From: Escherichia coli
GTDB taxonomy: Bacteria > Pseudomonadota > Gammaproteobacteria > Enterobacterales > Enterobacteriaceae
Length of the DNA: 64,000 bases
NCBI RefSeq assembly: GCF_030013205.1
Contig: NZ_CP122649.1
Direction: 5' to 3' (one strand)
The position numbers are program-made. This document shows positions 39,001-42,000 of this stretch, piece by piece (within the stretch, counting starts at the first letter, position 1; every line of letters begins with the position of its first letter).

Positions 39001-42000
39001 GCCGCCGAAAGACGCCCCTCATGATCTTGGCCGCTTTAATCCATTTCGAAAGAAGTAATCCTCATTAGCGCCCGCAGGGGCGCTACTCATCCAGCGCCTC
39101 ACGCATGAACTTCGTCATCGCTTTCTTACCTGCGTCAATGTTACGGATATAGCGGGAAACCATTTCTGGATTGCTCCAGTTACCCATCTCCATGATCTGC
39201 AAGTGCGTGTACCCGGCATTAGCAAGTTCGATGGCGCCGCCAACCCTAACGCTGTGACCAGTCCAGCATCGGGTGCCCGCTTCCTGCGGATGAAGTTCAT
39301 CCCAAAACGCTTCAAAGGCCCGGAGCAATGTGTTTTTACTGAGCATACCCTCATCATCGACAATAATGGGCTTTCCATTTTTCCCGATCGGGGGACGGGT
39401 AGGTCGGTAAGGCATATTATGATTTTTCAGCAGCGTATTGATCTCATTCCCTTTGCTCCGGAGACCCCATCCAGGGGGCATATATCCGCTGTCCTGATAG
39501 TTAACTGCCTGGAAGAGATAATCCTTCGGATGGCTTTGCTGGTCCCTTTTGACCATATCCATCAGCCTGATTAGGGTGGCAGTGAGATGAGGGGTCAGAT
39601 GATAGGTAAGCAGGGTACTGACAGTGGATTTTGTCCGGTACACCGTCAGGGTAAAACTGCCTGTCTGTTCATTCAGCACAAGGTCCTGCATCCGAATGCG
39701 CCGAAGTTCTGCTGAGCGCAACAGTGTTTCAAAACCTGTCCAGATAATGCAAAGGTCTCGGAGTTTGCGCACCGACTGTGTCGTACCGTGGGCTTTAATC
39801 AAAGCTTTCAGGTCGGAGACTAGGAATGGCGTTGCCTGACGAGTCACTTTTTGCTCTCGGGCTTCAGCTTGTTCGAGGCTTGCAAGAATACTCTTGACCT
39901 TGGATGTGATGATCCCAGGGCGATCGAGTGCTTTCCTATGGATACTGTTCAGCGCGTGCAGACAACCTTTAATGCTGCTGTGTGACAGCGAGCCCTGAAG
40001 ATAGTCCAGATAGGCCAACAACGGGGGTTCTGTCACCGGGAGAGAACTGGCAGGCCAGGCTTCGTTTCCCTCCTTTCCTGCATTAGCTTGGTACCACTCG
40101 TTCCAGGAACGCAGCCATTGAAGGTAAGTTTTAGCCGTGTTGTATTTCATATGAGAAAAGTAAAAAATGAGCTCCTTAAGGTCATTATTGGGCACCTCAA
40201 ACGTGACCAGTTCCTGATGGAGGTCTGAGTCTTCAAACTGTCTGGTTACTGGCTTGCTGTTCATGGTGGTCACCTGAATACACTGTTTTTATTTACAGCT
40301 ATTTTAGCACTGAGGTATCCACTTATGAACAGGTTCACAGCAACTAAAAAAGAGAGAGCGACTACAACAACGATCCGGAGATAAACATCAAATATTTGTG
40401 AAAAAAATTAGATTCTAGGGACAAAACGACATAAGATTGGGAAACCGTACTTTCGCGGGAAATAAATTAAGGTTGACCATGTCCGAAACTAAGCAGGCGT
40501 ATTTAATGAAATTTCGTAAGTGCTCTTCTTTCGACACACTGGAAAAAGTATTCGAACGACTCTGTGAAAAAAATGCAGGTATAGCATCACTGGAAATTTC
40601 CGGGGCATATGACCATCGAAAAGCTGAACTGACAATGAAGAAACTCTACGATAAAGTACCCGCAAGCGTATGGACACTGGTCCGTCAGTAATATGAAGAT
40701 ATTGGTAACCAATTTATCGCCGACTTTTCAGGAAAGGAGATTTATGAAAACGTCAGCAGTAAAATTAAAATTTTTTAATATTCTATTAATACCTCTAAAT
40801 AAGCTTAATTAGTAAAGTCATCACGTCATTCAAAATCCTGTTTCCGCTCCATGGTGGTAACTCGTATGAGAATTAAACATCTAATATTTTTACCTGTTCC
40901 CTTCATTTCCTTTTATTTAAACGCGGCGAGCTTGGACGAAATGGTGATGCTGCCAACTTACTGATTTAGTGTATGATGGTGTTTTTGAGGTGCTCCAGTG
41001 GCTTCTGTTTCTATCAGCCGTCCCTCCTGTTCAGCTACTGACGGGGTGGTGCGTAACGGCAAAAGCACCGCCGGACATCAGCGCTATCTCTGCTCTCACT
41101 GCCGTAAAACATGGCAACTGCAGTTCACTTACACCGCTTCTCAACCCGGTACGCACCAGAAAATCATTGATATGGCCATGAATGGCGTTGGATGCCGGGC
41201 AACTGCCCGCATTATGGGCGTTGGCCTCAACACGATTTTACGTCACTTAAAAAACTCAGGCCGCAGTCGGTAACCTCGCGCATACAGCCGGGCAGTGACG
41301 TCATCGTCTGCGCGGAAATGGACGAACAGTGGGGCTATGTCGGGGCTAAATCGCGCCAGCGCTGGCTGTTTTACGCGTATGACAGTCTCCGGAAGACGGT
41401 TGTTGCGCACGTATTCGGTGAACGCACTATGGCGACGCTGGGGCGTCTTATGAGCCTGCTGTCACCCTTTGACGTGGTGATATGGATGACGGATGGCTGG
41501 CCGCTGTATGAATCCCGCCTGAAGGGAAAGCTGCACGTAATCAGCAAGCGATATACGCAGCGAATTGAGCGGCATAACCTGAATCTGAGGCAGCACCTGG
41601 CACGGCTGGGACGGAAGTCGCTGTCGTTCTCAAAATCGGTGGAGCTGCATGACAAAGTCATCGGGCATTATCTGAACATAAAACACTATCAATAAGTTGG
41701 AGTCATTACCTTCAATACGTTGTAGCTTTTTCCTGAGCTCACGGATTTCAATTTGTTCCGGGGTAATGGGGGAGGCTTTTGGTGTTTTTCCCTGCCGCTC
41801 ATCACGTAATTAATAGGCTGTATGTCTAACTTCTGGCCACAGATATAATCGAGCCAGCAGTGCTCGCCGCAGCCGAGCGACAGGGCGAAGCCCCGAGTGA
41901 GCGAGGAAGCACCATGGAACAGTACTCATAAATTCTGCATACGCTCAATGCCTGCAAAATCACCTCCCCTAGGGGTTATCCACTTATCCACGGGGATATT

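Follow-up and report, generated by a model that had tools for sequence, protein, structure and literature searches.

The tyrosine recombinase gene R0183 probably belongs to a conserved locus of the IncHI plasmid backbone, made of a Cre-type dimer resolvase placed under predicted LexA control and a divergent hha gene, and the module boundary that appears next to it would be secondary to an IS1-repE-IS1 insertion. What is new here is a putative LexA-type operator preceding the recombinase gene in every relative examined, which we could not find reported; the literature search returned no report linking LexA to IncHI recombinases. The genes themselves bring nothing new, both being already catalogued in plasmid R27 with published phenotypes.

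The window, i.e. the whole 64-kb stretch of DNA analysed, comes from an IncHI1 plasmid of the R27/pHCM1 family. Its recombinase gene is R0183 of R27, with 100% DNA identity to R27 and related IncHI1 plasmids, and the annotation matches the R27 gene order R0180 insB, R0182 hha, R0183; R0182 has been described as the hha gene adjoining R0183 (PMC7366339). Read from a GTG, the recombinase open reading frame covers 39083-40273 (- strand). Translation more likely starts from an ATG at 40264, 9 nt inside this earlier call, because an AGGTGA motif lies 5 nt upstream of it, the RefSeq entry (WP_001086279.1) has 393 aa and the N-termini of homologues align there. The gene of this Cre-type recombinase is accordingly placed at 39083-40264 (- strand). 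Database records annotate R0183 generically as an integrase.

The integrase-family assignment made in the initial annotation was borne out by Pfam (Phage_integrase, 2.5e-12). The active site, on which the assignment could have failed, lacks no residue: R183, E186, K212, H337, R340, W363 and Y372 are invariant in an alignment of 12 sequences, and R183, K212, H337, R340, W363 and Y372 align with R173, K201, H289, R292, W315 and Y324 of Cre. R0183 thus displays, in order, the R, K, H, R, H/W and nucleophilic Y of tyrosine recombinases, with a tryptophan (W363) at the His-II position as in Cre. When the PDB was searched by sequence with phmmer, only Cre and Tre fell below E = 0.1, at E 6e-23. Here again, when the AlphaFold model of R0183 was compared to the PDB with Foldseek, ranks 1 to 33 were all Cre or Tre (E 1e-15 to 4e-9); Cre matched with E 1e-15 and a TM-score of about 0.75, and IntI, XerH and XerA with 2e-7 or worse. 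The Xer family models of NCBIfam were not reached (XerC, 17.0 bits for a cutoff of 335; XerA, 17.5 bits for a cutoff of 220). Judged from its sequence and modelled fold, R0183 is a Cre-type enzyme with all its catalytic residues intact, and neither a Xer protein nor a decayed phage integrase.

Cre has a role in the dimer resolution of the low-copy P1 and a second one in cyclising incoming P1 DNA. The two enzymes have the same catalytic residues, with Trp standing where the second His would be, but R0183 is only about 27% identical to Cre, its family carries an insertion of about 50 residues in the catalytic domain that the model renders with low confidence, and no 13-8-13 site adjoins its gene. 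The predicted LexA-type operator is a further difference, none being known at cre. Self-encoded tyrosine resolvases are also found on other large low-copy conjugative plasmids, among them ResD/rfsF of the F plasmid, and R0183 resembles them in being a plasmid-encoded tyrosine recombinase of such a replicon. However, tblastn of R0183 against 72,556 plasmids (E<=1e-10) retrieved only IncHI-type plasmids and their Klebsiella relatives and none of the abundant F-type plasmids, indicating that R0183 is not a close relative of ResD. Moreover, the recombination site of ResD is known, whereas the site search near R0183 was negative.

The block formed by the tus-like operon, the recombinase, hha and the next genes is conserved in at least seven IncHI-like lineages, gene order being kept in IncHI1, a lineage at 83%, IncHI2, Klebsiella IncHI1B/FIB, Photorhabdus, Rahnella and a metagenomic lineage. 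An integrase marking an inserted element would come with att direct repeats and be present only with the element; what we observed is synteny on both sides of the gene in these lineages. Based on this gene order, the locus is a conserved piece of the IncHI plasmid backbone and not the boundary of an element. The initial annotation had also raised the possibility that the recombinase is an integrase left behind by an integrative element, one end of which would border the operon at 34-39 kb. Its generic annotation as an integrase and its position near IS1, at a change of gene orientation, would fit this origin, but we regard it as highly improbable: synteny extends to the genes on either side of R0183 even in lineages where identity falls to 36%, no catalytic residue has been lost, R0183 has no arm-binding domain, neither att-like direct repeats nor a tRNA-type target are evident, and deletion of R0183 has a stability phenotype (PMC11724359). 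The nearby discontinuity is itself explained by IS1-repE-IS1.

This segment (40943-44133, + strand) consists of an IS1 copy (40943-41710, +, identified by blastn), a RepFIA-like repE with its operator and iterons (41711-43365, +, Pfam Rep3_N/Rep3_C) and a second IS1 copy (43366-44133, +, blastn). The IS1 copies are direct repeats, and the flanks of the segment, GGACGAAAT and CAGTAATGC, show no target-site duplication. On its left side IS1 cuts the gene of a signal-peptide protein, leaving a 5' remnant at 40866-40942 (+; MRIKHLIFLPVPFISFYLNAASLDE) whose product matches the N-terminus of a protein of pCFR-eb27; on its right side a 3' remnant at 44135-44248 (+), ending in SARSDPELMKFIMDYINNHKLH before the stop codon, matches the C-terminus of the same 213-aa protein. 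The interrupted gene is intact in pCFR-eb27, downstream of hha, and in no other lineage compared was IS1-repE-IS1 present at this locus. Further downstream lies a conserved gene of 357 aa with a CoiA_N-like N-terminus (44528-45601, +, Pfam CoiA_N 6.8e-07), homologues of which are found downstream of hha in pCFR, IncHI2, Klebsiella and lineage L009. These comparisons indicate that the 357-aa gene follows hha in the ancestral arrangement and that the central part of the interrupted gene, the one behind hha, gave way to IS1-repE-IS1, hence the apparent module boundary. The boundary drawn in the initial annotation between the recombinase-hha pair and IS1 would then be a secondary one, created when an IS1-flanked RepFIA-like repE segment took the middle of the next gene after hha, the neighbouring block being kept across lineages.

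The role of R0183 as a dimer-resolution enzyme comes from published genetics. R27 deleted of R0183 is stable in a wild-type host but is lost in xerC, xerD and ftsK-ATPase mutants, from which the authors deduced two redundant dimer-resolution systems, the evidence being plasmid loss rather than a direct resolution assay (PMC11724359, 2025). R0183 is one of these two systems, as already published, and the proposal that the recombinase resolves multimers agrees with these data. The likeness to Cre/loxP of P1 in this respect, a low-copy replicon helped in dimer resolution by the enzyme, is discussed in the same study (PMC11724359). The other system, XerCD/FtsK acting at the xrs site of R27, likewise resolves dimers of the same plasmid by tyrosine recombination and is genetically redundant with R0183. 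It differs in relying on host enzymes, on FtsK and on a 28-bp dif-like site, whereas R0183 is plasmid-encoded and lies outside the Xer family models. The published xrs site is absent from the 64-kb window. R0183 would thus be the plasmid's own dimer-resolution enzyme, working in parallel to host XerCD/FtsK at xrs elsewhere on the plasmid.

Upstream of the recombinase gene, a LexA (SOS) box-like operator was identified at 40281-40300 (- strand; AGCTGTAAATAAAAACAGTG on the gene strand), 16 nt before the ATG, with a non-curated PSSM of E. coli LexA boxes. It scores 19.5 bits, compared to a median of 19.9 for known sites and to 11.8 for the next backbone match in the window; one of 20 shuffles of the window gave a site of equal score, and CTGT-N8-ACAG occurs only twice in the 64 kb. 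A promoter scan predicted a sigma-70 promoter at 40301-40329 (- strand; TTCATA, 17-nt spacer, TAAAAT with TG extension), and the box starts 1 nt after its -10 hexamer. We then compared the relatives. A CTGT-N8-ACAG-type box, degenerate in one case, stands 10-25 bp before the recombinase start in all nine lineages (36-100% protein identity) and, in seven of the eight other loci, it is the top score of the whole 6-19 kb locus. The remaining locus is that of Photorhabdus, where the recombinase box ranks second, with CTA replacing CTG and a score of 12.6 bits. A -10-like hexamer abuts the box in each of the nine lineages, and the promoter hexamers are kept in the IncHI1, pCFR, IncHI2 and Photorhabdus ones. 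Beyond box and hexamer, the intergenic DNA is unalignable between distant lineages.

The abutment of a LexA-type box on the -10 hexamer leads us to predict SOS-inducible expression of the recombinase. LexA would hold R0183 expression down and its RecA-mediated cleavage would raise it. Such cleavage follows damage to DNA, a failure to resolve chromosome dimers or the arrival of single-stranded DNA by conjugation, the conditions in which homologous recombination would make plasmid dimers. Any LexA repression would however be partial, since microarrays detected an appreciable R0183 signal without DNA damage (PMC7366339). A parallel exists in the integron integrase IntI, also a tyrosine recombinase carried by a mobile element with a LexA box overlapping its promoter (predicted for R0183), a box that is kept across divergent IntI members (PMC3108266). 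IntI nevertheless belongs to another subfamily, 8 orders of magnitude behind Cre in the fold search; it captures cassettes, compared to a presumed dimer resolution for R0183, and its LexA control is demonstrated, compared to predicted for R0183. We lean towards the view that the host LexA gates a Cre-type dimer resolvase on IncHI plasmids and their relatives, among which PLSDB lists more than 1,300 Klebsiella IncHI1B/FIB plasmids, so that resolvase supply would rise with active RecA and possibly upon entry into a new host.

The conserved palindrome might instead be bound by the recombinase itself, as its operator or as a portion of its recombination site, or by another host factor. The promoter of a recombinase is often overlapped by its resolution site, as in ResD/rfsF of F; in the metagenomic lineage L011 the box is tandemly duplicated, forming a 13-6-13 inverted repeat, and no other target site was found for the enzyme. 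Yet the motif keeps to the LexA consensus of the host, CTGT-N8-(A/C)CAG, even where the recombinase is down to 36% identity, although a site cognate to the recombinase should change along with it. The symmetric arms of the box, only 4-5 bp, are far below the core site of a tyrosine recombinase, and LexA operators typically lie right behind the -10 hexamer, as this box does, which makes these alternatives unlikely in our view. Another possibility accepts the operator and moves the main job of R0183 to an SOS- or transfer-linked reaction, acting on concatemers or cointegrates after conjugative entry, with the xer-dependent phenotype as a side effect. The second role of Cre offers a precedent, and the neighbours of R0183 resemble DNA-metabolism genes (Tus-like and CoiA_N-like proteins). 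A LexA-controlled promoter would also fire in recipients, as conjugative single-stranded DNA induces SOS (PMC2958807). However, the only experimental data on R0183 concern vegetative stability (PMC11724359) and concatemeric transfer products are not known from IncHI plasmids, and we give this shift of function a low probability. A LexA-gated dimer resolvase remains the interpretation that we retain.

The recombination site was sought in the 64-kb window and in ten related loci as an inverted repeat with arms of 11-15 bp separated by 6-9 bp. No lox-like site (arms of about 13 bp, 6-8 bp spacer) was found within 2 kb of R0183, and in six other lineages the several kb around the recombinase gene contained no clean lox-like repeat either. 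Direct repeats of the res/att type, whose presence had been suggested around 40274-40478, gave no significant match; the only palindrome conserved in that interval is the LexA-type box. A 13-8-13 inverted repeat of lox-like geometry, CTTAAAGCTAATG gacgcata CATTAGCATTAAG, lies at 45803-45836, 22 nt after the stop codon of a converging 168-aa ORF. Its pCFR-eb27 counterpart displays compensatory changes in the arms, but with a 6-nt loop and 21-bp arms; the repeat is absent from the equivalent place in IncHI2 and an unrelated hairpin occupies it in L009. Given this variation and its position 3' of an ORF, it is more likely an ordinary hairpin between convergent genes than a lox site. A 15-8-15 inverted repeat at 18797-18834, located in non-coding DNA that IncHI1 and IncHI2 share at about 93% identity, is also an unlikely candidate: its loop has 12 nt in the Klebsiella lineage and the conserved part downstream resembles a promoter and leader, so that it reads as a putative terminator/promoter region. 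Two breaks of synteny proved equally uninformative. The one in p1902-MDR, 10 bp from the 45803 repeat, is the end of a Tn3-family transposon. The one in p8025, 70 bp upstream of the recombinase, is due to a 47-kb Tn4371-like ICE with TTTTTTGTT repeats and its own integrase, unrelated to R0183 (BLASTP E 0.84). No recombination site for R0183 was identified in PMC11724359 either; with the obvious nearby candidates now unlikely, the search space is narrower.

The hha call was confirmed. The gene (R27 R0182; 40479-40691, + strand; 70 aa, RefSeq WP_001324690.1) is divergent from the recombinase, and its product matches the HHA domain from end to end (Pfam HHA 2.1e-19, profile positions 1-56 of 57), as a typical 70-aa member of the Hha/YmoA family. 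It reaches 4e-20 and 71.8 bits on the NCBIfam Hha subfamily model, under the chromosomal Hha cutoff of 90, pointing to a plasmid paralogue. Together with H-NS, it would repress conjugation at 37 °C, as published for R27 Hha and H-NS (Forns 2005, as cited in PMC7366339 and PMC7074111). The stealth function assigned to this gene needs qualifying, the effect having been described for the H-NS paralogue Sfh and not for Hha (PMC7074111). The reported lack of an H-NS gene in the window stands: tblastn with R27 H-NS found none, and collinearity with R27 ends at 52853, exactly at the 3' end of the R27 hns position. Downstream of hha, the 23-codon ORF noted earlier exists (ATG 40745, stop 40813; 40745-40813, +) with an AGGAG 4 nt upstream, but it does not directly precede IS1, the remnant at 40866-40942 lying in between. 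It forms the 3' end of a longer ORF (39 codons from 40693) and figures in no annotated record. Its frame runs for 23 codons in this plasmid, for 44 in pCFR-eb27 and for 9 in IncHI2, where the Shine-Dalgarno sequence is lost; substitutions are mostly non-synonymous. From this comparison of three lineages we judge that it is not conserved and not a gene.

On its other side the recombinase converges, as initially described, on the last gene of a nine-gene same-strand operon, the two stop codons being at 39058 and 39083. Between them, a GC hairpin at 39066-39085, TAGCGCCC-gcag-GGGCGCTA, overlaps the recombinase stop codon. Its stem is kept with a variable loop in pCFR, IncHI2 and Photorhabdus, and it is absent from distant lineages; it is probably a bidirectional terminator or an RNA-end hairpin. 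No Rfam family was detected in the window. The Tus-like neighbour was considered as a marker of a replication terminus and rejected, with no E. coli-type Ter core in the window at up to one mismatch and no GC-skew switch near the recombinase locus. The conservation of a Ter-like inverted repeat at 38740-38785 is explained by its location, where two coding sequences overlap.

These results correct the map of this plasmid region: IS1-repE-IS1 is an intruder in a single old backbone block that comprises the tus-like operon, the recombinase, hha and the genes after it. The LexA operator yields a concrete prediction that is cheap to test. If LexA gating holds true, the enzyme would represent a naturally diversified Cre family (36-100% identity), and the SOS response would be coupled to dimer resolution in IncHI resistance plasmids as well as in their Klebsiella relatives. 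Quinolones and other antibiotics that induce SOS would then increase the level of a recombinase carried by major resistance and virulence plasmids.

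The recombinase ORF can be read over 39083-40273 of the minus strand from a GTG, but the ATG at 40264 appears to be the better start, because it lies 5 nt downstream of AGGTGA, corresponds to the 393 aa of RefSeq and is where the homologues begin to align. When the protein sequence was searched against all PDB chains, the matches were to Cre and to Tre, an engineered Cre derivative (E 6e-23 to 1.5e-20), and no other chain fell below E 0.7. An AlphaFold model was calculated with 12 homologues as input (mean pLDDT 74.6, low confidence at the termini and residues 267-293). Foldseek ranked Cre or Tre chains at positions 1-33 (E 1e-15 to 4e-9, TM about 0.75 on the target), followed by IntI, XerH, XerA and Tn1549 Int at E 2e-7 or worse. 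When Cre and ten homologues (identity down to 36%) were aligned, R183, E186, K212, H337, R340, W363 and Y372 were invariant, corresponding to Cre R173, E176, K201, H289, R292, W315 and Y324. The catalytic residues, whose possible absence had been raised in the initial annotation, are thus all present and the enzyme is intact. Relative to Cre, the family carries about 50 additional residues, inserted after the beta-hairpin region and before the HxxR helix. A Xer identity was rejected (NCBIfam XerC, 17 bits for a cutoff of 335). The 2,750 plasmids matched by tblastn (E<=1e-10) were all IncHI-like or from Klebsiella, so that close kinship to F-type plasmid resolvases was also discarded. These results, with the synteny given below, show that the recombinase is an intact Cre-type enzyme within a conserved backbone block.

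A 2.1-kb query around the recombinase and hha was 100% identical in R27 (NC_002305.1), pHCM1 and many other IncHI1 plasmids, and collinearity of the window with R27 extends over about 28.2-52.85 kb. R27's IS2 copy is not present in the window. A segment of about 2 kb (48178-50227), with a 401-aa ORF (48177-49382), is extra compared to R27 but found in the pCFR-eb27 lineage. In the R27 annotation, nine genes on one strand form a cluster, the seventh being a 'DNA replication terminus site-binding protein'; a 'tyrosine-type recombinase/integrase' converges on this cluster, an 'Hha/YmoA family' gene diverges from the recombinase, and IS1, repE and a second IS1 come next. As R0180 (insB), R0182 (hha) and R0183 are consecutive in R27 (PMC7366339), in the order seen in the window, the recombinase is R0183. 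Its stop (39083) and that of the last operon gene (39058) face each other across a GC hairpin seen in the sequence, TAGCGCCC-gcag-GGGCGCTA.

We fetched the recombinase neighbourhoods of pCFR-eb27 (83% identity), two IncHI2 plasmids (63% and 62%), a Klebsiella IncHI1B/FIB plasmid (36%), a Photorhabdus contig (66%), a read-archive assembly (55%) and a Rahnella contig (40%). The Tus-like gene and its companions converge on the recombinase in all of them, and an identifiable hha lies on its other side in all except the Photorhabdus contig, where a 64-aa ORF without Pfam match adjoins the recombinase and a Tn3-family transposon lies upstream. Rahnella has one extra gene between hha and the recombinase. 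A CoiA_N-like gene of about 355 aa then follows in most lineages; in the window it encodes 357 aa (44528-45601; N-terminal Pfam CoiA_N, competence protein CoiA, 6.8e-07; otherwise unannotated). In pCFR-eb27 a gene for a 213-aa signal-peptide protein separates it from hha. The window keeps the first 25 codons of this gene (40866-40942) and the last 37 (44135-44248), on either side of an IS1 (40943-41710), repE and a second IS1 (43366-44133). The flanks of IS1-repE-IS1 differ, which rules out a simple composite-transposon insertion with target duplication, and the arrangement is an IS1-mediated replacement of the interior of the signal-peptide gene. The module boundary initially placed beside IS1 is therefore not upheld: the IS1 'boundary' is secondary, and the recombinase belongs to the backbone. 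The 23-codon ORF noted after hha does exist as a frame from 40745, but it spans 44 codons in pCFR-eb27 and 9 in IncHI2, where its Shine-Dalgarno sequence is missing, and the two lineages closest to each other, although highly identical in DNA, have only about 9/22 residues in common. We regard it as an ORF that arose by chance in the AT-rich 3' region of hha.

Several side observations concern the cluster and other regions. The nine-gene cluster (about 33.2-39.06 kb) keeps its synteny with the recombinase in all lineages examined and includes a divergent Tus/Ter-family protein (36900-37859; Pfam Ter 6.7e-20, N-terminal two-thirds only). No E. coli-type Ter core sites were found in the window, nor a GC-skew switch at this locus. 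At 38714-38790, where the start of the last operon gene overlaps the end of the previous one, about 50 nt are 100% identical between IncHI1 and IncHI2; this conservation may be due to dual coding. The inverted repeat there, CGTGTTGTTACT / AGTAACAAGACG, has loosely Ter-core-like arms (3 mismatches). Inverted repeats at 5003-5033 and 37953-37987, both inside ORFs, share the 10-mer CATCAACCGT with arms in opposite arrangement; this 10-mer is over-represented at <=1 mismatch (12 observed, 4 expected), and none of the other fetched lineages has the repeat at 37953. Upstream of the cluster, GC-rich, partly overlapping hairpins (29508-29545, 30533-30564, 32628-32655; also 18040-19083 of the related locus L003) occupy the short intervals that separate tandem paralogous genes (about 300 aa each), and IncHI2 has hairpins of different sequence at the same places. 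Downstream of the trhI helicase gene, non-coding 18642-19038 shows about 93% identity between IncHI1 and IncHI2, much higher than that of the coding sequence, and a Klebsiella plasmid retains part of it. Within this stretch lie an inverted repeat of 15-8-15 geometry (18797-18834), two palindromes of shorter length and a promoter-like element (TTGCGT-N18-TATAAA) that is conserved along with its leader; the stretch had no Rfam match.

The hha call was confirmed (40479-40691, 70 aa, Pfam HHA 2.1e-19), as was the absence of an H-NS gene from the window, where tblastn gave no match. Similarity to R27 stops at 52853-52854, the 3' end of the position of hns in R27; in R27 and pHCM1, hns belongs to the backbone past this point. 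The resistance region starts at 52853 with chlorite dismutase and cupin genes (99.8-100% identity to Cupriavidus metallidurans pMOL30, Acidovorax and other plasmids), followed by IS26, floR and an ISCR2-like gene. The best-matching complete plasmid has no H-NS gene among those listed for the following 49 kb of its incomplete gene table. In this plasmid type, hns is displaced or lost. Hha together with H-NS represses R27 conjugation at 37 °C (Forns 2005, as cited in PMC7366339 and PMC7074111). The 'stealth' function first attributed to Hha with H-NS is in fact an effect of the H-NS paralogue Sfh (PMC7074111).

No res/att-type repeats, inverted or direct, were found in 40274-40478, where a search for them had been suggested. 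When the intergenic region of four lineages was aligned, the sole block shared by all was a palindrome, CTG-N10-CAG, close to the recombinase start on its upstream side. In the window this LexA-type box, AGCTGTAAATAAAAACAGTG (40300-40281, gene strand, 16 nt from the ATG), directly follows a predicted TG-extended promoter, TTCATA-17-TAAAAT. With a matrix made from 24 E. coli LexA boxes, it scored 19.5 bits (known sites 12.2 to 25.7, median 19.9); within the plasmid backbone portion of the window the runner-up reached 11.8 bits, and 20 shuffles gave a mean maximum of 13.4 bits, one reaching 20.9. The equivalent box was the top scorer in 7 of the 8 other loci (each 6-19 kb; for the related locus L009 the homologous start was used, not the over-long called ORF), with 12.6 to 24.2 bits over the eight. 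It ranked second in Photorhabdus, where it is degenerate (CTA for CTG). A -10-like hexamer always abuts it (TAAAAT, TAGTAT, TATCAT, TACAAT or TAGAAT), and one metagenomic lineage carries a tandem pair. Since the DNA around the box cannot be aligned between distant lineages, while the motif itself holds to the host LexA consensus and does not drift along with the recombinase, we infer a putative LexA operator and predict SOS-inducible expression. Literature searches gave no report of LexA binding or induction at an IncHI recombinase; LexA control of integron integrases is the closest precedent. In IncHI2 pMCR1-43934 (L004 8156-8853), an IS1 lies in the hha-recombinase spacer, some 95 bp before the start of the recombinase, so this part of the spacer tolerates disruption. 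A second strong LexA-type box, GACTGTATGTAAACACAGTA (58951-58970), has the highest score of the window, 21.0 bits. It precedes by 18 bp an ISCR2/IS91-like transposase ORF (58988-60337) that comes after floR (57329-58543) in the resistance region.

The role of R0183 has been approached genetically. hha and R0183 are each about 2.4-fold higher at 37 °C than at 25 °C (PMC7366339). When R0183, 'a potential Y-recombinase', was swapped for an FRT scar, R27 was stable in the wild type and 'readily lost' in xerC, xerD or FtsK-ATPase mutants; R0183 therefore contributes to R27 maintenance redundantly with XerCD/FtsK, its target site being left undefined (PMC11724359, NAR 2025). The xrs sequence of that study is absent from the window. 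The two intergenic lox-geometry repeats of the window behave as structural hairpins, and two rearrangement breakpoints near the locus proved to be a Tn3-family end and a Tn4371-like ICE. The recombination site may be located beyond the window or have too little symmetry to show up in a palindrome scan. The ICE, found in plasmid p8025 (NZ_KP899803.1; L007 10674-11100, L015 1-48310), places 47 kb between hha and the recombinase (integrase, RadC, ParB, RepA, ParA, relaxase, TraG, Trb T4SS), has TTTTTTGTT at its flanks and stops 18 bp short of the recombinase -35 on the upstream side, leaving promoter and LexA-type box intact.

The recombinase/hha finding is real and ordinary, and its main points are already explained in the literature. 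What is added here is the corrected architecture and the predicted SOS control of the recombinase. LexA would limit R0183 expression, and RecA activation would raise it when recombination, hence dimer formation, is likely, possibly also in new recipients; R0183 would then resolve dimers at its recombination site. Xer mutants induce SOS in part of the population, which, speculatively, would fit the genetics of xer and R0183 in R27.
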